Assembly (NCBI GenBank): GCA_964187785.1
Contig: OZ076411.1
Span: 89,652,001 to 89,716,000, forward strand
Length of the DNA: 64,000 bases
Direction: 5' to 3'
Origin: Amphiscolops sp. MND2022
Taxonomy: Eukaryota
Position 1 is the first letter of the stretch; the number at the start of each line of letters is the position of its first letter. The translations under genes were made by a program, and so were the position numbers. Shown here piece after piece: positions 10,440 through 64,000 of this stretch. The notes under the pieces were generated by a model that saw only the letters and a program-made list of their open reading frames with translations, searched no databases and had not been told where the DNA came from.

Positions 10440-10507
10440 ATGTCGAACGCATCCAATCAGCAGCTACAAATGGCACCTGCCCAAGACAACAGACCAATTT
10501 CCAATCA

Positions 10508-10556
<49 letters not shown>

Positions 10557-32050: not shown

Positions 32051-32614
32051 ATGAAGACGTCTTTATTCTCGAACGAGATCAGCCAGTACAACCAAGACAG
32101 GCCCAATACACCGCCGTCTAATTATAATATTATCAACCCAACGCAGCTTACTATTACTTATGAAAGATTTAAAACGGAAGATCTATACGTCGTCCTTGTC
32201 CATGAACAACTGCTTGAGAATGCAATTAACGCTGAAAACGAACAAGGAGTAATACGAAGATTTACTACAGACAATCCGGTTATACCAGATGATGAATTCG
32301 TGAGCTCAATCAGACGGTCCAATCAAGCAGACCAATACAGACCTGATTATATTTTCGACAGCCCTATGAGCTCGATCAGTGAGACCGACAGCAGCTCAGA
32401 AGGCTACTGGTCAGGCAGCAGTTGGGAAAGCAGCTCTTCATGGCGATCATACGATTCAATGAGAGACGACCTCACTACGCTATTTGATACACCGATACGA
32501 TCCATTTCCCAATTTCTTGTTCCCGAGGGAACAGGGCAAAGAAGCCGAGGACTGTCACAGCCCCACCTGAGCCGTGAGTTCTGCAGCAGAGACAACCCAG
32601 TCTTCGAAGAATAA
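32051..32614 (+). CDS. Uninterrupted 187-aa sense accessory ORF of B that reads through the PPT into the 3' LTR; product unknown (acidic, Ser-rich)
   Basis: ATG to TAA without lesions; last ~20 codons lie inside the LTR. Confidence 0.55.
   Translation: MKTSLFSNEISQYNQDRPNTPPSNYNIINPTQLTITYERFKTEDLYVVLVHEQLLENAINAENEQGVIRRFTTDNPVIPDDEFVSSIRRSNQADQYRPDYIFDSPMSSISETDSSSEGYWSGSSWESSSSWRSYDSMRDDLTTLFDTPIRSISQFLVPEGTGQRSRGLSQPHLSREFCSRDNPVFEE
32527..32552 (+). promoter_or_regulatory. PPT-like purine-rich tract before the 3' LTR of B
   Basis: GGGAACAGGGCAAAGAAGCCGAGGAC directly 5' of TGTCACAG; interrupted by pyrimidines. Confidence 0.55.
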
Positions 32615-34301: not shown

Positions 34302-35455
34302 CAGTGCATGAACAACAATTTACGGCTTGCTAGTTAAATGTATAAAATTTCTAGGAAGCGTGAAAAAATCTTACTTCCGGTCACTGTTAAAACATTATTA
34401 CGTTTAGAATGGTTAAAAGAACGTCTCAAGAACCCCTTAAGGTCGTTCTTTTTCGAGATTTGGGCCTATTCTGGGAGAAAATTTGAGAGAAGATACGTAT
34501 TTCAAACAAATCAACGGCTCAAACGATCAATAAAAGCTACCTGAAAGTTGGCAGTGTAGACGACGCAAAAAGGAGTGGCAGACCTCCGAAATTGATACGT
34601 AAAGATCAAAATTGGCTGCGAAGAATTGTTTGAAAAAACAACAAGGCATCGGCAGAAAAAATCGTGTTCTATTCAACAGTTTCATCATGAAAACTGTATC
34701 TGCAAAGACAATTCGACAAAATTTGCTCACAATGGACCTTGTAGGCCGTGCCGTTGCGAAGAAGCTTCAAATGAGAGCAGAATCCCGTGTTAATTGACTG
34801 CTCGGGGCAAAGCAGAGACGTAATAGGACAGGGGAGGAGTGGAAACGCCTTGTTTTTAGCGACGAATGCAAGTTTTCTGTGAAGAGTGATGGACGAGTCT
34901 TTGTCTGGAGGACCACTGGTACTCGGTACAAGCCAGAGAACACAATCGAGACGACAACGTCGCGATTTTCAACGAAGTTTTGGGGCTGCATAAGTGGCAA
35001 AGGGTCTCGAGTTTTGTTGAAGACCCCAAAAAGATGCAAGAGTGCAGACTATATTGATATGCTGAAGACGCCAGGAACCGACACGTTGGGCTATGACCAG
35101 TTTTTCATGGATGAAAACTGTCTCATCAATCGATCGAGTGAAGTTAAGCAGTGGCTTCATGACAATGGTATTGCGAAAGAGTTCTGGTCCCATACAGCCC
35201 AGATTTCAACCCCATAGAAAATGTTTGGGCCCAAATGAAGAGGGAAATCAACGCAATGCACCTAACCCCGGAGACCATCGAAGAAGCAGTTTATTATGTT
35301 TGGAATTCTGTTAAGGACTCTTTCATCAAAAAAGTTTATTCTTCTGTGGCCAATCGTATTTCACAATGTATTGGAAACCATGGTTTTTCAAAAAATACTA
35401 GATATGCGTTTTTTTGAAAATTCAACTGGGGCTGTGAACTTTTGTACATGCATTG
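34302..35455 (+). mobile_element. Tc1-like (Tc1/mariner) DNA transposon, decayed transposase
   Basis: TA|CAGTGCATG... and ...CATGCATTG|TA degenerate ~27-bp TIRs; motifs GRPPK, FSDECKF, FWGCIS and PYSPDFNPIENVW across frameshifts. Confidence 0.9.
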
Positions 35456-38400: not shown

Positions 38401-39251
38401 GGATGATCAGCTGCAACAAGTTTTTGAGCAATCCAAGGCTGCTATATTGAACAAAATCACCGAGGGTGTCTGGATAATCGACTCCAAACGCGTCACATGT
38501 TTGCCACAGATTGGTCCAAGAAAAGCATCGGTTTCTGGCTCTTGCAGAAGTACTGCACCTGTGAGGTCATCACTCCTATCTGTTGCTCAACGGGATGGAA
38601 AATAGTGTTCGCTAGTAGCAGGTTCCCACACCCAGCAGAATCAAGAAAAGCTCCTATTGAAGGAGAAGAATTGGCTGTTGTTTATGGATTGGAGTCCGGC
38701 CGTCACTTCGTACTCGGTTGCGACAACTTAGTGGTAGCTACTGACCACAAGCCGCTACTCGGGGTTCTCAACAACCGACACCTCGGCGATTTCAAGAATG
38801 AAAGACTATTGTCACTCAAGGAGAAGACGCTACCATACCGGTTCTCTATAATTCATATACCCGGCGAGAAACAAAAGGCGACGGATGCAAACTCAAGGAA
38901 ACCCACTGGTAATGCTTCCTTAGGATAGTGATTTCGAGGAGTCGGACTCCATCGCTTGTATTGAACCGCGTCTCCGCGATTCTGAGGCCACCATGACGTG
39001 TGAACCCGACACATCAATTGATCCGGAAGAAAAGCTTGCCGTTGCTGCGGCCACCAATCTCGGCGACATTCGCGCCGTTACATGGGCCGAGGTCCGAGAA
39101 CACACCCTACGCGATGACGATCTTCAAAATCCCAAAAAAAAGATCGAAGACGGTTTCCAGGGCATTACCTCATGATTGGATCTTGCCTCGGGTATACGAG
39201 ACTTCTTCCAATTCAAGGATGGACTCAGCACAGTGGATGGAGTGATTGTAT

Positions 39252-39464
39252 CCCGGCCAAAAGACACTAGATTCAGCCCAGGAAGTCATGCAGGTGACAC
39301 CTTGATGAGCAGAATGCAGTGTGCCTTTGATTAGTGCTCTCAGTGGTGATGGGATATGTTATCCCATCACCACTGAGAGCACTAATCATAGGCACACTGC
39401 ATTCTGCTCATCAAGGTGTCACCTGCATGACTTCCTGGGCTGAATCTAGTGTCTTTTGGCCGGG
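39252..39464. repeat. Palindrome with 105-bp arms, 3-nt loop and one mismatch
   Basis: 39252-39356 is the reverse complement of 39360-39464; the right arm is the integrase coding strand. Confidence 0.95.
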
Positions 39465-40266
39465 CATTACGCCGGCTATTGCCAACTTGAGAGCTCGGTG
39501 CTGGTCATGCAACGAGCGTGCGCCTAGTCAACCTCATGGCCCTTCGCTCGCGGCTCAGGCACCAGTTTACTCCTTCCAGTGCACCTGTGCGGATTACTTC
39601 GAGGACAAGTGCTGCAATTACATGGGGGTTGTGGACCGCTACTCTGGTTGGCCGATTGTGCAGCAATCACGAGTTGGTTCTTTGGGTCTTGTTAATTGCC
39701 TTCGCGAAGTTTTCGTCACATACGGCATTGCAGACGAAGTATCGTCAGATGGCGGACCTGAATTCACAGCCGAGGCGACACAACAACTGCTGTCAAACTG
39801 GTGTGTCCATCACCGCCTCTCATCTGTTGCGCTTACCCATTCCAACGGTCGCGCCGAGCTCGGGGTCGAGACCTGCAAGCGCATGTTCATGGACAACACA
39901 GGTCCGAACGGCGAGATCAACCTCGACAAATTTCAAAGAGGCATGCTTCGATACCGCAACACCCCTGACCGCGATGCCGGTTTGTCCCCAGCACAAATGA
40001 TCTCTGGAAGAACCATAAAGGACTTCATCCCCATTCTGCCTGGTTCAAATTGACCTCACAACAACTGGATAGAAACATGACGGGCCAGGAAAGAAGCAAT
40101 GCGTGCTAGAAATGTCTGAAATGCTGAACGCCTCACCGAACGCACGGTACGGTTACAACCCCTTAAAGTCGGCATCTTGGTCTTTATCCAGAACCAGACT
40201 GGTAACCATCCACTGCGATGGGATCGAACCGGCTTAGTGATCGAGGTGAAACAGTTCGACCAGTAC

Positions 40267-40479
40267 CATTGCAGTGCATAGGCAAGCTATTTTGTGCTTG
40301 TCGTGGAATCCGGGACACGAAAATTCCGCTGCTTGTCCGTGGAATGCTTGTTTGTGGAATCCGGGACTTACGACGTAATTTGCCAATTTTGCACAGTTAA
40401 AGGTATGGTCGTGGAATCCGAGGTATTGAAAGCACAAATTGCGCTTTGAGCAAATTAAGCTTGCCTATGCACTCTAATG
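40267..40479. mobile_element. ~210-bp MITE-like insertion in the integrase C-terminus
   Basis: 15-bp TIR core GTGCATAGGCAAGCT (40274-88) / AGCTTGCCTATGCAC (40458-72); interrupts FDQY|AVRVDG; internal GTGGAATCCG repeats. Confidence 0.75.
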
Positions 40480-43400
40480 ACGCCGTCAGAGTTGATGGAT
40501 CGGACAGTTACTCTCAGGAATCGGAAATTTCTACGGAATTTCGACAAATTCCTTGTAGACCACATACTTGGTACAACCCACACCATCCAACTTTTGAAAA
40601 CTCCCAACAACGCCGCGATTCTGTCTCCGGTGAATCAACGAACTAACCCAGAACAGGCAAAAGACCCAGCTACAGCAAGGCCGCAAACACCGCAACCGGA
40701 AACAAAGCGTCAAGTTCTGACCGGTGCACAGTTTACACAACGCCTCTCAGAGACGCCGGCAGTTACAATTAAAGCCCCACTCAAGTTCAAGTGCCCTCCA
40801 AATGAGTCCCTCGGAGATGAGAACGAGCCTTTGCTGGACACAGATATCATGCCCCACATCCTTTCTGCTGAATCACCCGACAAGGAGTCCAAATGTTGTG
40901 ATAAACTTAATGCACCGGGTCACCCAACGAGTCACCCCTAGCAACGACTCCCCCGGATAACCCACAGACTCCCCCCAGACGGTCCCAGAGAGAAAAGCGT
41001 CCCCATGTGAGACTTTGGGACTATATTCGATTCTGACAGTCCTCCCCGATATACTACGACCAGTTCGGACTGGAGGATGGGGGGGATGTACAATGTCGCA
41101 AACTCTATAATAACAGATCGTAAAATGTATAGATATATTTTTAAAAGTGTCATTATATTTCACAGGATCATTGTATGAAATACATGATTTATTGACACTG
41201 TTTCTACAAATAGAGGTTTCTACACAAAATAGATCTTGCTAGTTCGTTGCGACATATGCATCGTGTAATTTCACTCTGAGAACTCTATTTTGTTTAGATG
41301 GAGTTCAATGTATTTTGAATAAAGTTAGCATACTTTTTTTTTATTTGCGCAATTGTCGAATTCGGAGACGTTCAAGCTCTCAATAAAGTGATGACGAGCA
41401 TCATAGTTGTGATTCCTTATTCACAGACCAGCATTTACTATGCGATTTGGTGTTTCTTAAGATGAAGTAGTCCTTCACTTGCCGATCTTTCCAAATTTCG
41501 CTCTGCATCTTGTAGCGTATCGACACCATGCATTGGATTTGCTGACGAGCCCCCCTTTGGTACGAGCTACATTTTTTCGATCATGACTTCAAAATTAACA
41601 TTTTGACTTCTCTGTTCAGAAATTCGAAAACTTTGTCTGAATGAACTTCGAACATTGCGTCGCGTGCTTACCGCTTTGATTGAAAAGAAACTTCTGACGG
41701 GGAAAATTGTAACTTCGACCAGCGTGGTGAGCAAACAACATAAAAATTGGCCAAATTGGCAGGTACGTAAAATCAGTCGAGAAGACGTACAAGAAGACCG
41801 CCACCCCCAGAGTGCCTCGTCACTCACCCGTGAACATCAAAACACCTCTAAAACCTATCCAGACGTACGTTGACAACCGGAAAAACAGGAAAACAGACAA
41901 AAACCCAAGGATGTATATGTCTGAAGTACAATTGAAATTAGATCCAAAATGGAACTGATTTTATATTTTGGTTTTATTGCAGGTCGTATGAGTGAGAATA
42001 TGTTTTGATCAACCAAACGTTTAAGGTGTTCTTCGATGAAATGCTAGTGAAGAGCGATGGATGAGATGTGCTCTGTGTTGTTCAAATTTTCATGCAGAAG
42101 AGTAAATAGTTGTAGTTTCCGTTTTGTTCAGTGTAATTCCGTTTTGTTTCCGAAATGGTTAATATAAATGGAGGACATAAGCTAATAGAAGAATTGAATT
42201 GAAAACATTGATTAATGACGAAAAGTGTCAGAATTAGCATATTTTAGTAAGAAATTGGACATCAATTTTACTATAAAATATATCCTTTTTGTCTAATGCT
42301 AGGAATATTTGGCTGATAAACATCATCATGTCAGAGGGAGAATATTGGATTAGGCTGGTTAGTGCGAAATTGGAGAAGGACAAAATGTTATTCACTTATA
42401 ATCCTTGACGTATCAGTAAATAACACGTGTTGAGATTTACAAAACTTCAAAATTTTGCAATTTGAAAAGCCACAAATGGGTACCTAGGAAGATTCAGAGT
42501 GAGAGGTGCGAAAAAGTTTGACAAGTATGGATGAAAATTGTACAACAGAGGAGTGAGGATAAGGTTATAAGATGATTTTGGAAAAATCGTAGATTCAAAT
42601 TTACTAATTTTTTTCCAAGAAACAGGTAATATGAACATTAGAAATTGTGAGTGTTTGAATGTGGAAGGAGAGTGAAAGGATTCCATAAACAATGGGTCAG
42701 TTGGGTAGACAAAAGCATTAATGCAAACAGTGGGATTTACAGTTTGGAGTACATATGCAGAGGGTGCATTTTGAGTAACGTTTCGAGAAGGTTCAGACGA
42801 GATATGGAGGTAAATAGTTGAGGTTATGTTTAGGTTAAGCATTTTGCTTCTCCTCGATTATAGTAGTTGTGGTGGCAAACTTTTTGTATTGTTTTTTGAT
42901 TTCAACAGAGGAGACTTTTGCTACAATAAATTTGAGTTGAGCAAGAGAATAGTGTTCATGTACACGAGAGGTATAGATAGAACGAGCATAGTCATAGAGA
43001 GGAGTTTCGCTTGATATTGGGAAGAAATGATTAACATGATTGGGAATATTTGAAGGCAAGAGGAAATCCTCATCAAGATTAAGGGCTTCTTCTGGGACAA
43101 AAGGAGGACGGGTTGCATTCTGATAAGGACTGAGAATATACTACTAATCAACAGGATCATAGCTTCGTATTGTAGTAATCAGAGTGGTGATAATGATAAG
43201 AAGAAGATGTGAATTTATTTATCATTTCAGAAAACAATTTTTGGGGTTGGTTTTCTTTGAGAAGAAGTTTGTTAGTTCTGTCATGAATCATTTTTTTGTT
43301 TGCCAGAGTCGAGTTAAATGTTTCAATGGTTTGGACGCAACAGAGTGATCATAATGGCGATCCGCAGAGATAGGAAAAATGTAGGAAGTAGGAGTCGTAG

Positions 43401-44999
43401 TTAAGTATGGGAGGTTTGCTTTAAAATGTCAATGAGATTTGAAAAATTCATACGTCATTTTTTTGGAGTTTGAAGGCGTGTTGGTTGGAAAGAGAGTTGG
43501 GGGCAAAAATGTAGGGTGAATGAAAATAGGATAATTTAGCATCTAATATTCCTGCTTTTGAAGTATAACATCATTATCAATGGTTACTCGAAGATTAGTG
43601 GGAGGAAGAGTTGGTGAGTGAGGAGTTTTAAGAGTAGAATATTTTTTGAAGTAGTGGTTGAAATTGTTGTTAAGGAGGAGTACACGATGAAGAACATTAG
43701 TGTTTAGTATCAGAGATAGGAGTGATCAGAGTATCAGAAATCTGATTGTTATGGGTTGACCTTGAGTATTCGGAAATGTTGTGGGAAATTCCAAAGACAT
43801 CGGATTTGAGAGAAAGAGCAGAGAGAGAGAGAGAGTAATAAGTGAATAGTAGTACAACTGACTGGTATTTAGAGCGAGGAACTGTATTGGAGTGAAAACA
43901 AATTGAAAGTGAATAAAAAGTTTTTCACATTGAAAGCGGCAGGAAGAATAAAAGTTGGGTTGACTTTCAGGTGGGTGATTAATACTTGCATTGACAGGTG
44001 TTAATGGTATATCAATAAATTTGAGTGGTGGTGGTGTAGGGGGATATTAATTGGTTGATTGCCATACATTGTGTAACGTCGAAATATTAGGCGTAGTGTC
44101 AAAAGTAGTGTCATATCTGTTAATAAAAGAATTCAAATTAGGATGTGATTTTAACATTGACAATTGGGATTGTATAGGTGAAATTGTATTGCAATTTCTA
44201 TTCGTAGGAGGAATTGAATTATCTTCAATCGGTGGTCAAAAGGGGAGGGTTGACAGCTAATGCGGGATATGTGGAGAAGCATTATTAGGTAGGGTTAAGG
44301 TAGATAGCCGGGGGGATTCTATTTACATTTAGGGATCAATCCATGGGTATTCAAAATTTATAATTTTGAAAACGTGGTTTTTAAACTTCCTTTTGATTGA
44401 AAATTAGGAGGGCAACCTGAATTGTCATCAAAGTCAGATTCTACAGATTGAATCATTGCTTTGGTTGCGTTTTGCATTAAAAGATCGATGTAAGCTTAGG
44501 AGTGCATGAAAGAGGAACGAAATGAAGAGTGCAGTGGAGAAATAGTTCCGCATAGGTTTGAAGTACAACATGATTAACAAAGAGTCTACTGAATGCATCA
44601 GCAAACTTTCATGCGTAAGAAGGGTTAGGTTTAACAGATAGTCATGAAGACCATTTCTTAATGATTTATACGAGTTGATGGGACTAAATTTAGCAAGAGT
44701 TTTTACTCATAAATTTTTAGGTAATGGCTTTCCCGAGGAGTTGGAGTTGTAAAGTGTTATCGAAGTCTTCAGCAAGAAGAATCCAATTCGAAAAGGTTTT
44801 GAGTTTTTTTGAGAATAAATGCCTTTTCTTGAGCAGTAAAAGTGTTCGTGCTATAAGTAGTTTCAGTTTGTTTTGAGTTCGTGCTGATAGTAGTTTGAGT
44901 TCAAGTAACTGTGGAGAGTCTTTTCTAATACGTTCATGAGTGGGAACATAATTTTGATCAGTATCAGTATCAGTATTTTGCTAATTGGTTTCACAACGA

Positions 45000-46375
45000 A
45001 TTTGGTTACCATATTCAAACTTGTGTCTTGTCCTAGGGTCAACATACATGACAGTTTCACAATAGTTGACAGGAATTTCATCATAATATTGTCCGGATGT
45101 ATACAGTGATGAAAAGTGGTGAGGTCAATCATAGAGCCACGCAGTATAGCCTTTCACATGAAAAACTTTACTAATAGTTTGAGTGACGAGAAACCAGCTA
45201 GTTGTGGCTTTTTAACAGAGTAATACGTGGTTTGTAGAAGAATCAGTTTATAAATTCATGGGTGCTTCATAGTAATAGTTGCGAAGTTGTCAGCAGAATT
45301 TAATGCAGGAAAGCGGATCTTAATTTTTTTTCGTTTGGAACGAGATTCCCACTAAGAAGTTGAGTTGAAAGTTCTGAAATTGATCTTGTGGTGAAAGGTA
45401 TGATATTTTTAGGTTATGAATATGTTACGGTATTGTGTTGAAAAAGAAGGTGTGTGTTCATTGCAAAGTAATTTCTGTTCAATAAAAACTTCAAAACGAG
45501 AGAAACGTGTGTGAAATTTACAGCCATGATGAGGAGTTTCATGAAGAGAATAGGACTGGTAAAGAAGTGTTCGGTTTCAAGCCAATAGGCGGTTTCTAAC
45601 TTTTGAAGTTCTGCTGATAAAGGTCTGTATGGAAAAAATTAGACAAAAACCTTCAGTAAACCAAACCATGCTGTAAGGTGTGAAGGGGGTAGTTTTTCAC
45701 AAAAAACATCATTATGGAGGTAAGGCAAAGTGTGTCCATTTTTAAAACCATCATATGTGGATTCAGTTCCTTTAACAAGGAGAGACCAACTATCTTTTTT
45801 TATTCTATGTATTCATTGCGATCTCAGCATAGACCTTTGAAAGTTGCATTTTGAACAAGTGGGGAATTGGTAATCAAGGCAAAAACACCATATTGAGTTT
45901 AGTGAGATGGTTCAGTTTAGAGGAGGCGTTGTTTTCAAAAATCATCAATGAAAGTAAAGGAGCTACAATAGTCGAAAGCACTCAGTTGAGGGTTGTCTGT
46001 ACAAGTGAGGTGTCTGATTACATATTAACATTTTGTAGAAGCTAACGTACGGGGCATTTCATTTTACCTTCATGGTAGTCTGATCGATCATGACGACGAT
46101 CTTTACAGTCTGATTGAGTACAGACACATTTTTCACGTTTCACATAAGCTTGGCAAGTCATTGTTTTGAGTCGTGTTGCCTTTGCACGGACAAAAACATC
46201 ACCAATACCGCGAGATTTTTCTAATGAAGAAAGACTTGAGCATAAGGTTGTGCTTGTTAAACTAAATTGACGGAAATTGTGTTGCTTAGAACAATCATAA
46301 TGAAATATAAGTAAAGGAAAAATTTGTTTCCATAAAGGTTCTACTATATCATTTTCTCTATAGCCAGGGCGGAGC
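45000..46375 (-). pseudogene. env-like glycoprotein remnant
   Basis: Open stretch ~46374-46045: ...FPLLIFHYDCSKQHNFRQFSLTSTTLC...VFVRAKATRLKTMTCQAYVKREKCVC...; further pieces TPFTPYSMVWFTE, YWLET, LSRFEVF...C; position 3' of integrase is the env position. Confidence 0.45.
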
Positions 46376-49300
46376 TATTTTCTCTGAGCTATAACCCCTA
46401 AGACAGGGTTGAAGGTAAAAGAATTTGAGTGGTTAATATTACGGGAAGGATATTCAATGATGATGATGATTAAGACATGATATGGTGGTTAAAGAGAAAA
46501 GTTTAAATCTCGCAATAATTTTCAAGCGTGTGATTGTATTGAGGAGTGTTATAAAACCGTGTAAAAGTCTCAATGACGGAAAATCACTTACAAAGAGATG
46601 CATTCTTGTAAAGACGTACGGGTGGGGTAGTTATCTAAGTTTCACTGTGATATGTGAGGGAATTGGATTTCGGCTTTTTTTTATGAAATCACCGGTGATT
46701 ATGATTTTGTGTTGTAAATTAGGGTTGTTGAATCGTTGAAATTTCTCTCGACGACGTTCTTCAGAAGTAGTATTATGAGGTTTAGTTTATGAACAGCGAG
46801 GAAATAACTTTAAGATCCTCACGAGGAATAGTAAAAAGGGCATCATTATTAATTATTTGATAGTCAATTCTGTAAGGAATTGGAGGTGTTGAATATTGGT
46901 CAGTATCTACTAAAATATTTAGCATGCGGATATCAGAGGATAGTAGGCTATGAATTTGGGAGGAAGCACCAGAGAATAAATGTCCGGTTGTAGTATATGA
47001 GGATAACGAAGAACTTCGAGAGAAAACTTTATCGACACTGTGGAGGTGGATTGGGTTTGTTGTCTAAGAAGATTAGAGATTGTACTTGCTAAAGAAGGAA
47101 GAGAATGAGCTTTAAGGATTCGATTAGATTAAAATTTATATTTTTGTATAAAAGGAACAAAATTTGTAGAATCGGAAAAAGTATCGAGAAAATGTAGTGT
47201 TTTGAGGCCGAGTTACAAGGAGGTAAACGAAGATTAGGAAGTGAGAAACGACGAGGAGTCAACTTCACTCAAGAAAGCCTTCTCACTATTTTTTTTTACA
47301 AAAATTCTCTAACAGGCTTCGCAGGAGGTTTTGATGCAAGGAGAGAAGATTTACTTTAAGAATGTCAGCCACGTGTTGTGGTAGAGGTAGGTACAGGTAT
47401 GGACTTGAGTATGTGAGGTTTGTTAATATTACGGAGTGGAGAACGATCAATGTCACAAGGGTGTGGAACTTGATGTTAACTAGGAGGGTGAGTAAGTCAC
47501 GGAGTGATATCAAAAGGTGTTCCGTTTAAATCAGTGCCAGAGAAAGGGGTTTGTTGAATGTTAGGTTGTGATTGTTCAAAATCTGTTATAGTAGTGGATT
47601 TTGATGAGTACGTAGGAGTTTTTTCTAGAGAAGGGTTCATATTTATAAAATTCAAAGGAGAGCGATTTAGAATAAGAGATGGATTTGAGGAAAATTCTAC
47701 ACTTTGAGTTGAAATAGAAGAAGACACAGACGATGATGTATATGTAAAATTCAACGATGCTTGAATATCAGAATACGGCGTGGAAGCATAGACTGTTTTT
47801 TATATGTAGCAATACTGTAAAACCAAGATTGTTTATTGGATTTGAGAGGCAACTGATCATCAATGAAGTCCGATACGGTATGGTTTCGTGATGATATGCC
47901 CAGTAACTAAATTGTTCGATAGCAGTCTAGAAATAGAAGAAAGAATTAGTCTGGTCAGAAGCAGTTGTTCAGTTAGTGAGCACGGTAATCCAGCAGTGAC
48001 AAACTCAATTTTAAGGGGGAAAGCTAATATGATGAAGTCTTTGTAGATTTTTTGTAGAAGGGGGCGTAACTTACCAGGTGATTGAGGTGCATCAATTCGG
48101 GTGTAGAATGATGTATTATTATCTGAAGTAGCAGCAGATTCGGGTGTGTCAATAACGGGCGGAAATTTTTTTGCGAAAGGTGGATGTCGAGGAAGTGAAA
48201 ATGTAAATGTAGTAAGGATTTGTGTGCATTTCAAGTTTTGAGTCAGAATTGGAAACATCATTTTTATCAAGGTCGGAATCAACGAAACCTTACTGTAGAA
48301 GAGAAAAAAGTTCGATATCGAATACTTGTTTCAAGCGAAAATATAGTTTCAAATGAACTGGAAAAAGAGTTTTGATAAGACTCAAGACCAGGGGTTTTGA
48401 TGAGAGATGGTGTTGAATGGCCTCGACAAACACATGGGGAAATACAAGGTTCTTTGGTAGATAGTAGCGTGTAATGTGATTACGGTTAGTATGAAATGTA
48501 GAGTCCCCTTGTGTCGTTAGTTCATATGTGACATCAGAGAGATGTTTGAGACTCTTGAAAAGGTGTGAAAAGGAGATGTTCAGTAATTAAGAGAAATCAA
48601 CAGGTTTGAAATTTCTGTGGATAACAAGCGAGTTAATAGGGAGTTATTTTGAATGAATAGTTCGAAATGCAGAGGTATGTGAACCAAATTTTTTGAGAAT
48701 GTTACAGTGGATGGTATGTGTATTCGTTTGTAAGTGTTACAAATGTACAAAAATGTAAGTGGTATTTCGAGAAGAATGTGAAGTAGGTACTTTAGTGTTC
48801 ATGTAAATTCGATGGGTAAAGTGAGGAATTCATTTCCATTTATTGGTAGACGAGTAGAAAAATTGTGAGGTTTGATAGTGAGGTGTTTATTCGTTTGACT
48901 TTCAAGGCAGTCAATGATCAAAAATTAAAAATCATAGTGGTGAATGGGGATTATAGCAAATTTGATTGAAAAATTTTTAAAACGTTTTTCATGAGAACGA
49001 CCATGAGTATGGGTTTTGTCAAAAGCGGCAGAAAAGAATTTGAAAGGAAGACAAATTCGAGTTTGATTTATGGCGGTTAAAATTTTTTGAGTAGTTTTAT
49101 TAAATATACAGTAATTTGTAGTTTAATATTGTATGAGGTGAGAGGTAGGATCAAATTATAGGTGTTGAAATATGTATAAAGAAAAGAGTTGCTTTTGTTA
49201 ACGGGATAAAGAAGAGGTTTTCTTTCATTCCTTTCGTAACCATATAAACACAGTAGAGAGAACGGGGTCATCTTTTTGAGCGTGTCACGAAATAGGCGAA

Positions 49301-49919
49301 TTTAAAATTGTATTTTGAGGTAGGAAAAAGTTTTCAAAAGCTTTACAATGAGTGAAATAAGATGAATAAAATGTAAAGATTGTAAAGATGTAGGTTGAAA
49401 AAGAATTAGGAAAACAGCATCAAAGTTAGACTGAAATAAGTTGTTATCAGATGACAATCGGGTTATTTGTAAAAAGGAAACATCGTATTTAGAGTTAATA
49501 ATGAATAATTTTTCTCTAATTCTTGAGAAAGATGAACGTCCTAATAGCCTGGAAAGTCACTTACATTGTAGTATTATCAAAGGGTGAAGTTTCCAAATCA
49601 AACTGGTTCGGCTCACGGATTCTTTTTGAACTAGGATCATAATTTCATAGAGGTTTGTTTCGTTGAAAAGAGGATTTTCTTGCAGGAGTGTTTTCATTTT
49701 GTTCTTCATAGGTTTTTTATTTTTGTTGGGAAATCATGTAAAAGACGGAATTGAAAAAAGTGTAATGGATTGTATTCAACGGTATTACTTTTATCAAATA
49801 CTCCGTGTGTAAATTGATCATTACCTAAATGATCACCCATAAATGGGTGAGAAGCTTGTTTTTAGAGGGTAATACTTATTGGCTGTTTTACTAATTTTTG
49901 TATTTGTCTTAAGGAGACG

Positions 49920-50748
49920 AATGAAGTCAAATATTTCTGTGATTTTGGGTGAGCTCTTAGCGTATCTCAAAACTGAGAAGACCTCAATCAAATTTTAGCT
50001 ACTAACGTTGATGTTACTAATCGAGATAATTGTTTGACAAAAACAAGAAACATCAAGTATAAAACAGAACAAAGTTCGAACTTATGTAATGTTTGTGGTC
50101 AAATTCTCATGATATTTGGAAATTGCAATTACATAATCTGAACAAGCTTTTGGCACTTGCCTCATTGTTGAAGTTTCCCCACTTTATTGAAAAAACTGCG
50201 AAGCTCCAAATCATTTTCGTTGGTTTGACACAAAGGTTTGATAATCGCGAGGCCAATAAGCTGTATTGGAATCGTCGTGGTTGATCTCACGGCCACCTCC
50301 GTAGATGCCAGTCAGGTTGCACTTCCCGCATTGCCTCGCCCTGTACATCGCTTAGGAAACCAATCTCATTGATTGTTCCCAACCCGTAATTCAATTTCTT
50401 TCTTCCGCGTTTGAATGAATTGTCACAATGCATCTTTCATTCCAAGTTAAAGTTGATCGTCAGTGGTGTTTTGTATATTCGAATACGCGGTGTATCGACC
50501 AGAAGGCATCACTGCTGTCACCAACCAATGAAGTCAAATATTGCTCTAATTTTGGGTGAGCTCTTAGCGTATCGCAAATCTTAGAAGACTTCAATAATAT
50601 ATTAGCAACTGATGTTGATGGTAATCGAGATAAGTGTTTGACAGAAACAAGAAATATCAAATATAAACAGAACAAAGTTCGAACTTAGGTAATGTTTGCG
50701 GTCAAATTCTCATGATATCTGGAAAATGCCATTACATAATCTGAACAA
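49920..50748. repeat. Diverged ~225-bp direct repeat (49920-50145 and 50527-50748)
   Basis: AATGAAGTCAAATAT...GGGTGAGCTCTTAGCGTATC...CAGAACAAAGTTCGAACTTA...ACATAATCTGAACAA present twice. Confidence 0.85.
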
Positions 50749-51313
50749 CATTATGACAAGGAGTTATCAGGTTGTAGTTGATTGATTTCAAAATGTGGTG
50801 GTAGTGTCTCATGTCGTAGTTGGCGAGTTTTGTTAGTAATTGTGGAGAAATTGCTACTTAGCATCTCGGCGACAGCAGTGTTAGTACTATTCCAAGATTT
50901 GCAACTATGGTCATTATCATCTGGGTTTTGTATTGACGGGGAGTTTATTTACCGTTTTTAGTGACGAAAGACAGAATTGAATTTTGATCGGTAAGGAGTG
51001 TGATCGCAAAGTTAGAACCAAAGATAATGATTCGTACGTAGAAAGGGCAAAGGTCAAATCACAAAGTTTTCTATCATATGTTGATAGTTTTTGTACTTGT
51101 GTGTTGAAAATTCAAGAAGTGTAAGGAATACCTTGCATGTGGTTATTAGAATTAGGTTTAAAAGAGAATAATGTTTAAAAGGTGTAATGTAGAAGGAATG
51201 GGATGTGTTAGGGATAACATTTTCAGCATTTTTCATTTTACAAAGGTATATTTCATTAAAGAGGTTGTCTTATAATTTTTCAGTAAAGCCAGTGAATCTA
51301 ATGTCATTGATTC

Positions 51314-53199
51314 TGTCGCGACCACCGCGGTGTCGCGAGACTTCAATTCCAAGAGGAACGCCAAAAAAAGGAAACGAAGAAATTGACCAGAACAGGTCAG
51401 AAAAGTCACCATAAAACCTGAAAAGGAAACTAACAAACTATTTTACCATCACTAAGTAAATATGTAAATATATAAGTAATACCCCAGTGCAGTACCTAAA
51501 ATACATGAATATTTATTTATTTAAATAATAATAAGGAGCGCAGTATTTGTTTAGTCAAACAACCAGCGTGCTGACCGAAATTTAATCCGATCAGCGCATC
51601 GACTAGAAGTTTCCCTCAGCGGCAGTAGTAAACTCAAACTAACTCTGTGCTTATTAACCAATCGGAATTGAGCGCAGTTGATACTAAATAACAAACCTGA
51701 GTCCACGTCCCAGGCAGCATACCAGTCGACTGAAGCTGAGTCGCACGCTCAGTCGCACTGCCTGCATACTCTAGTACATTAATATTGAACGATGCTAAGT
51801 CGAATATAGATGGAAATATGTGACCTAAGAAAAGCCTAATACCAAAGGAAAGCCCGATAAACGGTAACAAATGATAATTGAGTGCTACTATGAATTTTGT
51901 TTAATTTGTAATTGAGACAACCGCCCAGGCAACACACTGAATTTTCCACTAGGAACGTTGGACCGGGTGATTTTCAACAAACCTCGATTTAATATTTAAT
52001 CACCTCGTTTCATAATCATCACTCCGTTTGTTAACAATGACTTACCATTCAACTTGTCCCGCTTATATGAAACCCCCCATACATCGTTTATTGAGTCAAA
52101 CACCTGGTAAGCTAACCAGGCGACTCATGTCAAGTTTAATGACCAAGTGTCCTGGTACTTTGTTGCTTGTTTCCTTTCGAATCATATATTAACGGTGCTA
52201 ATTAACTGATTGCGAAGAGAGTCAGGGCTGTTAATTTTTTGTAAAACTTTTACTGATTTTGTTGAATCAACCCGAGAATTTGTCGAAGTAAAATTCATTT
52301 CCTTTTCCCGCCTTCAGTAGCTAGGTTCATGAATTTGAGTGCCAACTTTGGTTCGCCGTCTTGAATTCGCGGGGAATGAAGAAGGAAAGTACGCGGACGT
52401 GAGACTCGGCAGGAAGTTGATTCCCAGTTTTTCTTTAAAGTAAGATGACGCTGAAAGCCGAGTCCCGAGGAAGCGGACCTAATTTGGAATTCGTTGCCTC
52501 GGATTGACGCCGAGCAGAACAAGGTGTGAATTCACGCGCAGGATTTATCCCGCGTGTCTAGCGCAAAGTACATACAAGCGAAGCGGGTTAAGGAAACAGT
52601 CATTAATTATCAATTTTCCTAATATCTTACTGCTTTGAGAAGTTTACTTTCGATAAGAAACTCACCAAATCTCGAAACTTTAATCTTAATAGTTGTTGAT
52701 CATGTTTCGCATACTTACTTCTTTCCGTTGTGATATTCAAAGTTTGAATTTAATATCGTTTGGTAAAAATAACCCTGATTGGAAATAGTTTGAAACTGTT
52801 TTATTCATTTAAAATAACGGCTAAATTGGATCATATGGACCAACCATTCTTCTTGAATAATGCCTGAAAAGTCTCAGAAAAAACTCAGAAGTGATCAGAG
52901 CAGTAGCCAAGAAAACGCCGAAATATCCAGTCAAGTCTCTGACGAAAATACATGCCTCACCGAAAAGGATGTAGCAGACATCTCGAATAAGATCAAAAAT
53001 CGATTGTCTAAAAGGTTAAGAGATACTGAATTTACCCAGAGAGAGATCTTAAGATTGATTGAAAACCTCACGTCGAAGGTAGAAAGCCTCTCGAACCCAA
53101 CCACAGAACAGTCTGGTCAGGCATTACGTTTTGAACTAGATTCAGGACCAGTCGAAGACTCAGAAAATAACGACATTTCTAGGAACCTCAGTTCCAACA
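51314..53199 (+). repeat. 5' LTR of A2 (~1.89 kb)
   Basis: TGTCGCG...TCCAACA followed by the PBS; homologous to 6952-8812. Confidence 0.85.
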
Positions 53200-53212
53200 T
53201 GGTGACAGGAGT
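53200..53212 (+). promoter_or_regulatory. Primer-binding site TGGTGACAGGAGT
   Basis: Same 13-mer as in A1 and B. Confidence 0.85.
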
Positions 53213-54247
53213 ATTCACGAACCAACAAGAGAACAAGCATCAGCGATCATCAAGCCTACCACCTCCAAACCAGAGGTCCCCGATGATATCATTGACAAAT
53301 TACTAAAATAGTTGCAAACTGCAACCAACCACAATTCTGGCGTCCCCACACTACCCAAGGCCATGTCTACCACCATGCCAACTTTCGACGGCAAAACTGA
53401 CAAACTCGAGCACTTCGAGGACATCTTTCAGACAAGCCTCAAGGTGTATCCGAACATCATAGAGAAAAAAAACATTATTTTTATTCCCTCCTGAGAGGCG
53501 AAGCATTGCGAACATTCAGGAATGTGACGGAAGCAACACGGGAACACCTCAACGACATCCTTGCAGGCTTCTACCGCAGATACGTGAGACAACAATCAGT
53601 GGGAACAGCACGCTGCAAATGGAAAAATATGTCCTTTAACCCAAGCCAACAAACATTCCCAGATTTTCTAGAACAGTTTCAGAAGTTGGCCCGGGAAGCC
53701 TATGGAGAGGACGCCCCCCGTTTCATAGAGACCTCTTTCGATGCCAAGATGCCACCTCACCTCAAGTGGGTCTTAAACCAAGCCCGACTTGAAACAGTGT
53801 CATACGAAACCATGGTACAACACCTGGAGAAGGAAATCGAACTCAATGGACTTGCCACTACTGACAGCCCATCTACTACAGGGGTACACAACCTCGAACC
53901 AAGTCTACAACAACATAAACAACAACAACAACAAGAGAAACCGCCCGAAACAACATGAATATGATTCGGGTGTGGCAACCCGGGACATATGCTACGAAAC
54001 TGTCGTAAGACAAACAGGGACAAACGATCCCAGAGAACGAAATTCCAACTCAAACTACACCGTGTGAAACATGCGGAAATATGAGCCACGAGACCAAAGA
54101 TTGTTACTCGGGAGCGAACTGGGCAAACCGCCCAACGTGGTGGAAAACACCCAAAACAAAACCACCAAACAATATCCTGATCCTTCAACAATCACAAACC
54201 ACCCCAATGCAGCAGCCACAAACCATGGCACCAACAGATACCGAATT

Positions 54248-54254
54248 AAAAAAC
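54248..54254 (+). promoter_or_regulatory. -1 ribosomal frameshift slippery heptamer A AAA AAC (also minus-strand 5977-5983; C AAA AAC at 24917-24923)
   Basis: X XXY YYZ heptamer in gag phase, just before the gag stop; the -1 frame opens into the conserved pol N-terminus. Confidence 0.75.
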
Positions 54255-57200
54255 TTCTAAAGCCACGTCTTTGCTTCGGGGAATACATTGACTACAGTTA
54301 CTACACCATATCTGAACCATCTATTAGAAATGTTCGCAGAGTGTTCCGGTGAACCATCTACCGACTGTCAGCAAAGATGGCTCATAAGGCGCCTCATAAA
54401 GTTCAATAAATCCACCATTGACAAACTGCAATACCCAGAACGGTATCACGAAAACCCCAAACTGTACATTTCAACTAGACGCCCCCTCCCATCCAGTTCT
54501 ACTCCTGACACCTACATACACGATCCACACTACGGTTGTGACCCTTAGCACAACCCTGACTTATATGACCAAGTGACTCTAACCTTCAAAAAGACGATCA
54601 ATGTACCCTTCCACGACTTCGTTAAGAGAACGAACATGAACCTAGACATCGCCAAGAGAAAATATGTTGACATTGATAGTCACTCACCCGCACACGAAGC
54701 CGAGGAACACGATCCGGAGATACAAGTTATCGTCACAACACCTGCGGTATCACTCAGGTCAATACTCAAACCACACATCTCCAACCTGACCGAGAACAGG
54801 TCACCACCAAAAGCTTCGTCACACACAAACGCAATCCGGGCAGCAAGGACATCATCACCTTCATTTCCCCAAATGGCAGAACTCCCAATAAAAGAAAGGA
54901 CAAAGCAACCAGAAATCTCATCCATCAACGTACCAGATGCATACAAAGCTGGGGACTCTCCCAACACCCCTGCAAATCAAACAATTACTGACCCAACCCA
55001 AAAAACAAGGCGCATCAAACGGGCACTGATATGCGAGTTTGACCAAAAACCACAACCCAATACCACTGGGGACACTAAACCTGAAAATTTTCAACAAGAC
55101 GACGACAACTCGCTGCTACAACTAGACCCAAATCAACTAGCAAAAATCACTATTACAAACAATCCAACAGGGGAACAATATCTACCACTATTCTCGGCAA
55201 TCGCCCTCAAACAGAAGAGACGCATGAGTTTCGCACCAATGAACTTTCAACACTTCTCTCCTCATCGATTCGGGAGCCCTGGTCAACTGCATGCCCAAAA
55301 ACGAATACCAAAAACTCAAAAACATGAGTCCCAATAACATCCTACAGGTAGCTGATCCACCACCTTTCAAACTGCGAGTCGCAAATGGCGATATAGAAAC
55401 CCCAATCAAAACAATCCAAGTACATTTTGAAATGGGCGACTGGACATTCCAGGAAACGTTCGTTGTACATAGTAAGATCACAGGTCCCATCCTAGGGGTT
55501 ACTTTCCTAAAAAACAATAGCGCCATCCTGGACGCCAGTCAGGGACTCCTACATTTCCCCCACTTAACCTACGCAATAAACCCTGCATGTGACGAACAGC
55601 CAGCAAAACCGCACAAAGTGATCACCCTCAACCAGACAACGTTGGCCCCCAACCAATGCATCACAGTCGAGGCCCTGGTCAACATCAAATCAATCGCAGA
55701 CACCATCGGCGTCATTCAACCGACGCCAGCCTATGCAGAAGACAAACCAATAGTGCTTGCCAGCTAACTATCCACAGTCCACGAAATGAAAGTGCCCATC
55801 CGAATCACGGATATCTCACCCACACCATTCACCATCAGGAAGAACACACTGGTGGCCGAATTCCACATCACATCTCCAAATGAAGCTAAAAACATCAAAC
55901 CTTTATCGACAGCTGCATTAAAAGTCCTAACCGAAGACGATTCAGAACAAGCACTTCAATACGTCAACGAACTCCTGAAAACTACCGAAAAACTTGAAAC
56001 AGCCCAGCAGTTCTCGTTCCCAACTCCAGACAATCCAGGCGACCCCTCCACCCACGCACTTGTCCGAAGAAGGATCCTCAGGGAGATCGAAGAATTGAAG
56101 GAAATTCAAGAACTGAACCCCTCAACCAGTCAACAAGATAGACAAACATTCTTCGAGAATTTTAAGTGAGATGATTCCCAATTACACGACCAAGACCGGA
56201 AATGTATCGAGAACTTACTCGTCAAATACCATGACATATTTGCCCGCCTCCGTCTGGACATTGGCGTCAACCATGACTTCAAAATAAAACTGACACCAAA
56301 AAACGACCAACCAGCTTCCACGCAGAGCCTACCCTGTCCTGTGAACCTCAAAGTAGACCTCACAGTGGAACTAGCGTTGATGCACTACTACGGCATCATA
56401 ACCACACTACCTTTCAACAAATACGCTAGCAGCCCATATTCGCTCAACAAAAACCAAACGGGCGACTTCGACTGCTAGTTGACCTTAGAAAGATCAACAA
56501 TCTAATAGCTGACGACGACACCAACAACAACCACCCAGTCAGCACCCTCTCCGACGCAACCTAACACCTCGCTGGAAAGAAGTTATTTTGCAAGCTAGAC
56601 TGCTCCCAGGCTTACCACGTCTTGCAAATGGCAGACAAAAAGTCGGTAGAACTACTAGCTTTCAATTTCGCCATTCGAACATTCGCGTACCTGTGACTCG
56701 CACAAGAGCTCAGCAGGTCCCTCTCCTCCATCTCGAGCTTCATGAGAGAATATCTCGATCGAGTCATCAAAGCTGACAAATGCGCTCAGTACGTCGACGA
56801 CATCGGGATTGCCATCCACAACGCCGAGGAGCTGAAGATCAACCCGGGTGAGGTTTTTCAGTGCGTCCGAGAAGCAGGATTGCGTTTGACAATGATCAAA
56901 TGCCAGTTCAGCGCCAAGGAAGTCCAATTCCTCGTACAAACTTTGTCACCCGAAGGAATTGCCCCACAAGACCAGAAGATCCAAAACTACCTGCAAAAAC
57001 TGACCTTCCCAGAAACCAAAAAAGGCCTGCAACGCTACATTGGATTTGTTAACTATTATCGGAATTACATCCCTAGACTTTCCGAAAAGATAGCTCCGTT
57101 CCACGAAATTATCAAAGCAGAAAAACCCATCTAGACCACAAACGAGATAATGAACAGCTTCAAAAATATTAACAATTCTTTAGACAACGCGTGCGGCCTG

Positions 57201-59829: not shown

Positions 59830-61705
59830 CTAACGCTTCTTCACAGGGGTCGAATCTTTCCCTCCTGTAGCTACCTCTTGCGACGCTCGTCGAGCTTCTC
59901 GTTTCTGCCTCAACATCCGGGTAACGTCACGGGAAGAAGTCGGGGAATAGGAAATAGCAACAAATAAAAGATAAGCCTGAGGAGACCCCGCAGACTCTTT
60001 ACTACCCCTGCCCCAAGAACGGGCAGCAGAAGATACACCAACTGACAACGGGAGACAGATGGATCCACAACCACTCCAGGCTCCACTGACGTTTGTGGAC
60101 TGACATCGGCAACGGACAAAGTCATGGACGATGATAATCCAGTAAGAGGTGGCTGACCAACACGACGACGCCACTCAGCAACTTGGTCCAAGTAATACTC
60201 ATCGAACCGGTCCCGCAAACCACGGTAGGATCCTATCGACTGAGTACATAAAGTGGCCGCCACGGAGCGAAACTCTCATTGTTCAGGAAGTCCTTCCCAA
60301 CAGCCAAAGTGGCTTTCAACTCAAGCAAGCAGTCTTTTGTCAACAATTCGCCGGAATCGAACCCAGGAGCAGAAACAAACGACTGCACAGCAAAGATAGA
60401 AGACAGCAAAGTCGTCTTGGGGACTTGAACACCACTCAGGGAGAACTCAACGACTGGATAATGCACCTCACAAGGAACAGCCACGAGCGAAGCCAACTGG
60501 ACCACATGAGACAAATTTCCACGACAGCCAAAAGCTTCAGACTGCTGCATGAACACGACAGTGTCCGTGATGGTATCAACAACACGTCGATTACGACGAC
60601 GAAGATCCACCAAGAAGGACTTGAAATCATTGCAAAGACTCTCAGCAACCACATTCGTCACACGCCCACACTCCTGGAAACATGCCATCATTCCACGAAA
60701 CAGTTCAACTGTATAATTTTCAGCAGAAAGGTTCTGGAAATTCGCCTTGAAGCACGACACCAAAAGGTGCAACAAGCCCAAAGGGGGCAACACCTGGTCA
60801 TCAGCCAAGACCATTTGATTCAAATCAGCTGCATTCTATTGCGACTGGCAGGAACAATTGACGACTCTTTCAGATAAGACTGGACATCAACCCAGTTGCA
60901 TATCAATTCCTCCAGCACTGCACATAAAGAAGAGAAGGGTACTGCACTCCGCTGAACACATCGACGTAACTCACCCAAACTCATAAGCCAAGGCTGATGT
61001 GATGCTTTCCCCAAACGAAGAAGGAGATAATCATTGATTGAGAAAGGGTCCAGGGATCCAGAGCTCCGACCAGAAGCCTCACGAACATGTTCTTTGAACA
61101 TCTCCTCAGAATACTCGATTATCAGAATTAGCACAGGACGACTATCAGCCTTACACCATTCAACGAAGTCATTGAACAGGGTCGACGAACACCTCCGCAG
61201 CCCCAACAGGAAGAACAGCTAACAAACGGGACATACAGGCAATCTCAGCGTCACAGATACCAGGCTTCACGGGCTTCAACAATACACAAACTTCGTGCAA
61301 ACTACCAACATTGCAACAAAGCACGAAGCATCGAAGACCATCATGATCCTCACTTAAACTGACGTAAAAATGAGCGTCCTTACACCAGGACTGCACACGA
61401 CGGATGATCAATGGATACAAAGTTTGAGTCAGAATGACAAGAGACTATCTTGCTCCAAGTCGTGTGAGCACATTCGGAATCAACTGGAATTGTGGTTCGG
61501 AACTGATTCCACAACCTTCTGAGGAAACTGTGAGACCCACCTCTTCGCAGGAGTTCAAAAAACCCCCTACAAGAGTGAAGGCACGAACGTTTGATGATAC
61601 CCCAACCAAGGAATCAACCTCATCTTCGACGAAAGGGTTCTTGCAACCAAGAACCACAGCTGGAATTTTTTCAATCTCGGCCTGTGACTTCCATTTGATT
61701 GTGTG
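59830..61705 (-). pseudogene. Antisense accessory gene of A2 (>=600 codons, 5'-truncated), product unknown
   Basis: Minus-strand ORFs 61445-61657, 61169-61420, 60820-61206, 60233-60823, 59910-60263 and 59830-60174 tile one reading path; the C-terminal part is conserved in A1 with a strong synonymous bias. Confidence 0.75.
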
Positions 61706-64000
61706 TCAGAAAAGGGTTTGTGTTTTGTGTATAGACTGGTGAGGTTAGTGCCATCATTAAAAAAAGCTGAGAGAAGCTTTTGTAAGATGCAAGTAGCAAA
61801 GGAGAATCGTGTATTAAAGCCGTAGGATATTTTGGTTTAGCATTGTGACGTATCCAGTGATATACGGTTTTCAAAACAAGATCTTGGGCTTGTTGATGTT
61901 GTAGTGTATGTAAGTCTAGGGAAAATCATCAGGCAAGAAGAAACCTTGAAAATAGTCCTTGTATTTAAAGAAAGAAGGGTCATAAAAGGGTATGACTAGA
62001 GAAGTTTGTGTAGAGAGTTTATTAAGTTCAGTCGTATCAATGACAGCAGTTGATAATGATGAATGTTCTATTTTTGTGAGTGTAGAATAACTAGTTGAAC
62101 GTGGAAGAGTGGGTGTTTGACATGTATCATTGGTTTGATCATTGGATGAAAATGTAACAGATTTTGGAATACGAGTGTATATATGATCATCGTCATCACT
62201 AGTAACAACAGTATCACTAAGAAGTAAAGATTGTTGATGTAAAGATTTGTTATGTTTTCTAGCAGGTGTTTTATATTTGTTTTGAAATGGAATTATAGAA
62301 TTGAAGGAAAATGAGTCTAGAGATTTGACAATAATGTCGTTATCTTTGTCATTTATACGAATAGAGAACCGATCTGTTCCATAATCAGCAAGAAGAGGGT
62401 GAGAATCATATTTTTGATGTGGTAATACTGCTTCATGTTGTATTAAGTAATGAACAGGTGTTAAAGAGTTGTTTTGTAATATAGCAAAATCTTTTTGGGG
62501 TGGTAGTTGTTTATTTTTGAGTTGATTCAGTTGGAGATCAGTTTTGGTAAAAAACGACTGAGCATGTCTGCAACAGACAAAATTTTACTTGGAGTATGAA
62601 TAAGTTTGAAGTTGGAAAACTTAATAAGTTGCACTTGAGCACGATAAAAACGTGGACTAAGATTTCCCTTTTTTTGTAAAACAGTGTAACAGAGGTTTAT
62701 GATCTGTGAATATGTGGATTGGATGTGGAGATCCAATGAGAAAGAATTCATATATTTGAAGGGCATGTACTATACCAAGAAGTTCACGATCTAATGTAGA
62801 GAGTTTTTGTTCTTGTGGGTTAAGTATTCTGGCGTTGTAAGAAATAACTTTCATTTTAATGTTCGGATTGAGTTGGAAAAGGACAACGCCTATTCCAATT
62901 AATGAGGCATCAACAGTAATGGAAAAAGGATGTTTTGTATTAGAAATTGTAAGTTCCGTATCAGAAGTGAGAGCGTTTTTTTTAATTTGTGAAAAAAAGC
63001 TTCATTTTCAGTAGTCCATGACCATAGAGTAGTTTTTTCTATAGAGTAGTTTTGACCATAGACCATAGTTTTTCTATAAATTTTGTATACAAATTAGGTG
63101 CACCGATAAACCTCATAAGGGCAACTTTACTAGTAGGAGAGGGGATTTTGTGACTTTCATCGACTTTAGAGTGTATATGTTTAAGTGTGTTATAACCAAT
63201 TTTATGTCAGAATATTGACTTTCAGAAGCTAGTTTCAAAATATGTTTTGGATTGATTGTATGAAGTTGTTCAATAAGTTGGAACATATGTTCTTTAGAAT
63301 CAGAAAGTTATAGTATGTCGTCGATATAAACTAGGGCGAAGCATTGTTCTATGGGAGTTCTGAAAAAGGAAGACATTTGTTGTGTAAAGAAGTTTGGTAA
63401 TCCTTTGAGTCCATAAAAACCTCTAATGAATGCAAAAAGATTATCACCTGAGGAAAAACTAGTAAGTTTTATTGTTTCCTCGTCAAAGGGAGTGTGAGCA
63501 TATGCGTACAGTAAGTCTATAGCACACTTGTACTTTTTAGTTGCACGAGATAATTGTGGAACAATCGGTTCTATGGGCCGAGATTCATCGGATTGTTCTG
63601 TATTAGAATTCAAATGTCTGGCATCTAGAACACATTTAATAGAGTCTCCTTTTGGTATAATAATGAGAGGATTGAGATAAGTTGTAACATAGTTAGGTTT
63701 GTCTTCAGGAGAAGAGCTACTTTGTTTAATAATGTTGTGTTTTTCTAGTTCTTTGTGTAAATTATTGAGTTTTTCTTTGTAATGGATAGGGGTTTTAGAA
63801 GGACGTTGTGTAAGAAGTTGAGCATTTGGTTTTAAACGTATTCTAAAAAGAGTTGCAATCTTTCCAACATCGGTTTTATGAGTAGCATAGAATATTTTGT
63901 GTTTTTTTAGTAAGTTACACAATGTTACATATTCGGTATCGGTAAGATCAGAAAATTGAAAGTAGAATTTGTTTATAAATTTGAGATTGTCTTTTGATTT
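61706..64000 (-). mobile_element. AT-rich Gypsy element fragment (RT, RNase H, start of integrase); continues beyond the window end
   Basis: RT ORF 63308-63922 (VLDARHLN, AIDLLYAY, FYGLKG, VYIDDIL); RNase H (DRELLGIV, TDHKPL, VADMLSR); linker ...VLKTVYHWI ending at ~61710. Confidence 0.9.

Follow-up and report, generated by a model that had tools for sequence, protein, structure and literature searches.

In the yeast retrotransposon Ty1, GAG starts inside the long terminal repeat (LTR) and takes roughly 14 codons from it, and short remarks on open reading frames (ORFs) starting in LTRs can be found in Repbase reports. The available passages of PMC4974528 locate the Ty1 primer-binding site (PBS) inside the GAG ORF, at RNA nt 94-104. 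For Cer1, a Gypsy element of C. elegans, PMC10309623 describes a large non-matrix region at the N-terminus of Gag, which precedes CA and NC and is predicted to form a long coiled coil. Since the Cer1 LTRs comprise 491-492 bp, while the 5' UTR positions given in the same passages are nt 957 and nt 1175, Gag of Cer1 begins past the LTR.

The elements described here share with Ty1 a gag start in the LTR and a PBS within the coding sequence, and with Cer1 a large non-matrix N-terminal Gag region. In contrast to the few LTR codons of Ty1, however, 103-216 codons including a helix under selection are encoded by the LTR. Moreover, Ty1 combines a tRNAiMet primer with the order PR-IN-RT, whereas these elements comprise a PBS for tRNA-Leu(CAG), the order PR-RT-RH-IN and LTRs of 1.1-2.5 kb. 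The gag frame of these Ty3/Gypsy elements is open from an ATG in the LTR across the PBS into capsid and zinc knuckles, its LTR part is kept under selection, and judged from the sequence this part is probably translated as the N-terminus of Gag.

The elements are placed in Ty3/Gypsy by domain order and Pol similarity. All three unbroken pol ORFs showed the order protease-RT-RNase H-integrase, the best solved relative of Pol was Ty3 Gag-Pol (E 1.4e-39), and paired TG...CA LTRs, a short target-site duplication (TSD), a PBS and a purine-rich tract were all present. BEL/Pao was rejected: Gag matches DUF1759 (E 3e-8 to 2e-5), yet pol matches Gypsy-type models only, and in BEL/Pao a DUF1759 Gag goes together with the pol families DUF1758 and Peptidase_A17. 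Ty1/copia was rejected as well, since neither its integrase-before-RT order nor its tRNAiMet primer was found. Ahead of the protease, an extension of 230-520 residues was observed (pol ORFs L071, L095 and L121; window positions 24611-26201 and 54300-55200). Furthermore, L121 showed a weak dUTPase-like match between protease and RT, and PF00692 is precomputed on the database proteins P0197 and P0210.

The window, i.e. the whole analyzed stretch of 64,000 nucleotides from Amphiscolops sp. MND2022 (contig OZ076411.1, 89,652,001 to 89,716,000), comprises three related elements, namely A1 on the minus strand, B (21987-34113) with both LTRs, and A2 on the plus strand, none of which contains an unbroken Gag. 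The 5' LTR of A2 (51314-53199, plus strand, 1,886 bp, TG...CA) ends at a position homologous to the TSD-confirmed ends of relatives; no 3' LTR of A2 was detected within 20 kb past the window. Within this LTR, a degenerate TATA-box position (52569-52576, plus strand) corresponds by homology to the GTATAAATA conserved in unbroken relatives and may have had the corresponding function. The LTR-coded Gag N-terminus (52860-53199, plus strand) comprises 113 codons plus one nucleotide with a basic tip, an amphipathic helix, which was predicted on an unbroken relative, and a disordered tail. It is followed by the PBS (53200-53212, plus strand), 13 nt complementary to tRNA-Leu(CAG) and read as M-V-T-G-V, and by the remainder of gag with linker, capsid and two zinc knuckles (53213-54261, plus strand, end coordinate approximate). 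Frame changes interrupt this remainder; the first occurs near 53277, and a stop follows at 53306.

In A1, the 5' LTR (6952-8812, minus strand, 1,861 bp) is found within the window and the 3' LTR outside, with the TSD GATAA on both sides. Its LTR-coded N-terminus (6952-7294, minus strand) comprises 114 codons plus one nucleotide. According to the original prediction, the A1 frame runs without a break up to the capsid-like region; it is indeed open across the LTR end and the PBS (6939-6951, minus strand), but A1 Gag stops at 6841-6839. In the 5' LTR of B (21987-23811, plus strand) the coding part is broken by the loss of the start codon and a deletion of about 100 nt. The PBS (23812-23824, plus strand) and broken gag and pol pieces with capsid, zinc knuckle, protease, RT, RNase H and integrase (23818-30533, plus strand) follow. 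The 3' LTR of B (32553-34113, plus strand; flanks TTAAC and TTAGC with one mismatch) carries a second copy of the LTR-coded frame (33759-34113, plus strand, 118 codons), which stays open into the flanking host DNA until 34214.

The LTR ends were thus located at 53199 (A2), 6952 (A1) and 23811 and 34113 (B), and the PBS TGGTGACAGGAGT starts at 53200 (A2), 6951 (A1, minus strand) and 23812 (B 5' LTR). As originally predicted, the ATGs at 52860, 7294 and 33759 are located in the LTR at distances of 340, 343 and 355 nt from its end, all 1 mod 3 and therefore in the same phase, and the LTR-coded peptides quoted for them agree with the translations. The predicted reading of the last LTR base together with the PBS in the 5' LTRs, A|TG-GTG-ACA-GGA-GT, with its in-frame ATG, was found as well. 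Although this junction ATG is present, it is no special feature, since any LTR ending in CA that abuts a TGG primer site spells it.

Further features were observed in the window. Positions 10431-11354 contain TAZ zinc-finger exons after a CAA repeat, which we take to be a piece of a CBP/p300-like host gene. At 36000-41200, RT, RNase H and integrase pieces of a fourth Gypsy-type pol were found, which is more distant from the others. This remnant is accompanied by a 136-bp repeat, located at 35625 and again at 41087, and by a palindrome of 213 bp (39252-39464). A DDE_3 (Tc1/mariner-type) transposase fragment (E 1e-4) was found at 34798-35214. The regions 42000-50000 and 62000-64000 are AT-rich, and their G skew is strong (0.26-0.50). 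Near 49917-50758, a repeat of about 604 bp is located.

Unbroken relatives were collected by protein searches of the genome. In the first set of 20 A/B elements, 19 showed two LTRs (1.9-2.2 kb, 96-100% identical), and all 19 pairs comprised an exact 5-bp TSD at the CA end abutting the PBS. The Gag ATG of these pairs lies 343 or 355 nt inside the LTR and opens a frame of 464-520 aa. A second set of 20 elements yielded an LTR pair in 16 cases, including family C, which was found by capsid similarity alone and whose LTRs contribute 199-216 codons to gag, and family D, in which this contribution amounts to 132-133 codons. The proposed LTR end of family A was confirmed in two ways: 13 of 13 full-length A relatives showed paired LTRs with exact TSDs, and the 3' LTR of A1 itself ends at the homologous CA, followed by the GATAA of the A1 5' flank.

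The exact LTR/PBS junction motif occurred 7,527 times in the genome, compared to one occurrence of the reversed control. The first 30 motif matches on contig 1 were picked by the DNA motif alone and are free of protein bias. Upstream of these junctions, the frame in the junction phase was open for at least 110 codons in 22 of 30 cases and the other two phases in 0 of 30 each. Since the number of stops within these 110 codons amounted to 29 in one phase compared to 237 and 390 in the others, the open upstream frame is not due to chance. About nine or ten N-terminal types were present among the motif-chosen junctions, and their full-length members comprised 103-215 codons. Extension of ten of these loci, from further families, showed a second LTR ending at the junction in nine, with an exact TSD in eight of them and agreement after a one-base shift in the ninth.

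From 266 database Gag-like matches, 78 without the capsid-start motif and 69 with a short N-terminal part were removed. Among the 119 left, 104 contained MVT[GE], and the residue before it was N, H, D or Y in 104 of 104, because an LTR ending in ACA can encode just these four. A database family of the P0090 type matches this genome at only about 50% identity, and therefore the layout probably reaches another species. The database proteins P0080-P0111 showed two to four in-frame tandem HMVTG junction peptides, apparent duplications of the LTR end plus primer site.

For the determination of selection, 64 unbroken Gags were obtained from 112 fetched stretches, and 55 remained after removal of duplicates, while broken copies were excluded. 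The dN/dS of the LTR part, determined from unbroken frames only and with synonymous sites near saturation between subfamilies, was 0.089 for family A (n=24), 0.119 for B (n=15), 0.140 for C (n=10) and 0.067 for D (n=6), and the comparison with omega=1 gave a 2dlnL of 196-290 in these families. Purifying selection at 0.07-0.14 along a frame that is open from the LTR ATG over the PBS agrees with the predicted Gag start inside the LTR and points to a coding function. Five younger subfamilies showed values of 0.14-0.22 for the same part. The central helix showed values of 0.026-0.039 and the capsid of 0.008-0.025, the tail of the LTR part is weakly constrained in B and C (0.43 and 0.37), and the linker 3' of the PBS is again conserved in frame (0.07-0.39). 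Sorted by codon position, variable sites numbered 150/134/375 in the LTR frame compared to 189/206/206 in the 390 nt upstream. These upstream 390 nt also contained 56 indels of mixed length compared to two of 3 nt in the frame, a contrast that is biased by the choice of unbroken copies.

In the B subfamily of the window (28/30 copies), variants common to at least three copies showed a pN/pS of 0.06, compared to 0.75 for singletons (p about 1e-12). Since shared variants are this strongly depleted of amino acid changes while singletons are near-neutral, selection acts on transposing lineages during replication and not on inserted copies. The fourfold-site divergence of the LTR part was 1.7-8 times that of the capsid in the same copies (A478, A493, A496 and B), and in young subfamilies the LTR-coded part was 2-10 times more diverged than the capsid. 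In A493, one mosaic site pattern was confined to the LTR part. The excess divergence together with this pattern hints at recombination.

The 13 bases of the PBS match the 3' end of tRNA-Leu(CAG) plus CCA. The corresponding tRNA 3'-end pattern was found 774 times in the genome, and ARAGORN called a tRNA-Leu at two of six pattern loci. From G000:C8:35595871 onward, an array of tandem repeats, each about 296 bp long, carries many tRNA-Leu-like 3' ends matching the primer. Three fourfold third positions of the PBS are frozen (16/16, 15/16 and 16/16 representatives); the other fourfold columns, 23 in number, all vary. The predicted pairing with the tRNA alone explains the frozen positions. The visible coding constraint on the PBS is its phase, because the phase TGG-TGA is a stop. 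Accordingly, the original proposal of a PBS under dual coding and priming constraint was correct in that the PBS lies in coding sequence and is constrained in phase, but overstated with respect to the frozen sites.

For an unbroken Gag of family A, AlphaFold2 (alignment of 20 rows, mean pLDDT 60.8) predicted a disordered basic start (1-31), a helix (36-79, pLDDT 70-90), disorder up to about 142, and the capsid with its knuckles. The N-terminus of family C, modeled alone, showed a confident helix over about 81-130, for which Foldseek returned no match. Likewise, Pfam and PDB sequence searches with the LTR-coded part gave nothing above cut-off. The best Foldseek rows for the capsid fold were dArc1 (E 0.012, prob 1.00) and PNMA2 (E 0.028); a two-lobed capsid fold plus CCHC knuckles is present, with weak E-values and high probability. 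The elements therefore resemble dArc, PNMA2 and Ty3 in the capsid fold, whereas the LTR-coded part gave no structural or Pfam match above cut-off. In general, this part is predicted to consist of a basic tip of the KRK/TRS/LRSG type and an amphipathic helix of 35-70 residues in a disordered chain. The helix periodicity of 3.6 (A, B) or 3.9 (C, D) is not a canonical heptad. A two-copy self-association prediction for helix residues 28-84, made from the single sequence, gave a score of 0.02, which counts neither for nor against self-association. Retroviral matrix domains are globular four- or five-helix bundles. Such a fold was rejected for the LTR-coded part, as the models contain no helical bundle and have no structural match. 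What remains of the proposed LTR-borne matrix-like domain is a coiled-coil-like helix under purifying selection, one long helix in disorder.

Based on the residue pattern and on the predicted non-matrix N-terminal coiled coil of Cer1 Gag, the helix may bundle Gags as a coiled coil, while the basic tip may serve in their targeting to the nucleus or nucleic acid. We regard this role as the most likely one and give it an even chance. A function like that of matrix, in which the basic tip and the amphipathic helix would bind membranes, appears doubtful. It is consistent with the net charge of the first 15 residues, which amounts to +3 to +6 (8/8 checked A-D proteins), and with a helix moment peak at 100 degrees in A and B, but the helix itself is slightly acidic (-1 to -2), and the models lack a helical bundle or a matrix match. 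MGxxxS is an N-myristoylation motif, and the MGNKRS start of one other family fits it, whereas Gly2 is absent in all eight A-D proteins. In addition, the extra ORFs tested matched no envelope-like family.

While these two readings concern the function of the LTR-coded part, others concern its expression and its maintenance. If Gag started at the LTR/PBS junction ATG, the upstream frame would be non-coding or incidental. This ATG is nearly universal with a strong context (+4 G), and eleven database proteins are called from MVTG; however, its presence follows from CA + TGG, there is no stop between the upstream frame and the capsid, and the upstream frame shows purifying selection, codon periodicity and stop avoidance, which makes such a start very improbable. 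The junction ATG could still start a shorter Gag in addition, for example by leaky scanning. It is somewhat less improbable, but still unlikely, that the LTR frame is mainly used as a first exon which Gag shares with an accessory protein made by splicing, in analogy to CERV of Cer1. According to PMC10309623, CERV and Gag have N-terminal peptides including a leucine zipper in common, and CERV contains a KRKK signal. The elements do carry a conserved 3' sense ORF, but this ORF has its own Met and, in six of seven B copies, a TATA-like box about 130 nt upstream. Furthermore, no donor-like GTRAG site is conserved across families, and the linker past the PBS is conserved in frame as well. Finally, selection by the host after insertion could maintain the frame, as a domesticated or dominant-negative peptide from 3' or solo LTRs. 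The 3' LTR copies were stop-free in 19 of 19 young pairs, with promoter, ATG and helix, and the singleton pN/pS is slightly below 1. Since recent copying explains the open 3' copies and singletons in copies without PBS showed a pN/pS of 0.89 (54 non-synonymous, 16 synonymous), we regard this explanation as hardly credible.

Translation of gag from the LTR ATG would be in line with the expression signals. All 16 representatives of families A-D showed a TATA box 116-268 nt before the LTR ATG, 12 of them with no intervening ATG and four with an upstream ATG; in L159 and L160, which belong to other families, no TATA match was found within 400 nt. No conserved poly(A) hexamer was found in the transcribed LTR among the examined representatives. 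At the end of gag, a slippery-type heptamer (A-AAA-AAC type) was present in 62 of 64 Gags, and pol lies in the -1 frame in 7 of 7. Transcription would start about 30 nt after the conserved TATA box, and ribosomes would take the LTR ATG as the first one. Gag-Pol resulting from -1 frameshifting would carry the same LTR-coded N-terminus. About 490-810 nt of LTR would be transcribed, a length that the first reverse-transcription product would have to span. With each replication cycle, the coding segment is copied into both LTRs.

At the other end of the internal region, the 3' LTR start was mapped in at most 34 elements. In 29 of them, a sense ORF of 182-326 codons extends over the purine tract, and 28 of these ORFs reach 62-107 nt into the LTR. 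The dN/dS of this ORF is 0.08-0.22. The copy in B (31988-32614, plus strand) runs over the polypurine tract about 60 nt into the 3' LTR. The encoded proteins are Ser/acidic-rich and showed no Pfam match. Because the Gag frame spans the PBS, the sense ORF spans the purine tract, and both are constrained, both primer junctions lie in selected frames. An additional antisense ORF of 820-920 codons was observed on the minus strand between pol and the 3' LTR (L071/L072 and relatives, e.g. L092:82-2631; two ORFs in family C). It showed a CxxC...H zinc-finger-like start and a dN/dS of 0.07, and decayed pieces of it are probably located at window positions 59913-60835. While Pfam gave no convincing match and PDB none, ESM Atlas leads of 0.86-0.89 point to hAT/FAM200/ZBED5-type proteins, and the ORF is possibly a captured transposase-derived gene.

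A full-text literature search, with most subscription papers outside its coverage, returned no selected LTR-borne Gag module of 100-216 codons. The layout is also absent from the available passages of PMC3601003, PMC13524379, PMC7175516, PMC10974842, PMC6451197, PMC3095310 and PMC12853362. Altogether, the layout is known in miniature from Ty1, and the long selected LTR-borne version is new within the literature searched.

LTRs are usually treated as non-coding. Throughout this clade, however, selected protein sequence accounts for about 15-40% of the LTR. Where the LTR and the internal part are annotated separately, Gag would be cut at its junction Met, the position at which the eleven database proteins mentioned above start. 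The peptide motif [NHDY]-M-V-T-G is a footprint by which the layout can be found from protein sequence alone. The layout would force a long first reverse-transcription product and put the primer site under translating ribosomes. In mouse, tRNA fragments repress via a PBS in the 5' UTR, according to the available passages of PMC12853362; here the PBS is moved out of the 5' UTR, and an escape from such repression is speculation. Every LTR in a 3' or solo position represents a cassette of promoter, ATG and helix that opens into host DNA. Tentatively, and with considerable doubt, this high-copy Gypsy clade may be regarded as one in which the LTR has become a two-ended coding cassette, whose localization/oligomerization module is swapped between lineages by recombination and whose 3' or solo LTR peptides fuse to host DNA or dampen particle assembly, as a form of built-in copy-number control. 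If this held true, the LTR would supply as many as 216 codons of Gag 5' of the primer site as well as the C-terminal end of an accessory ORF over the polypurine tract, making both primer junctions coding, and the 3' and solo LTRs, in their thousands, would be sources of open-ended basic coiled-coil peptides.
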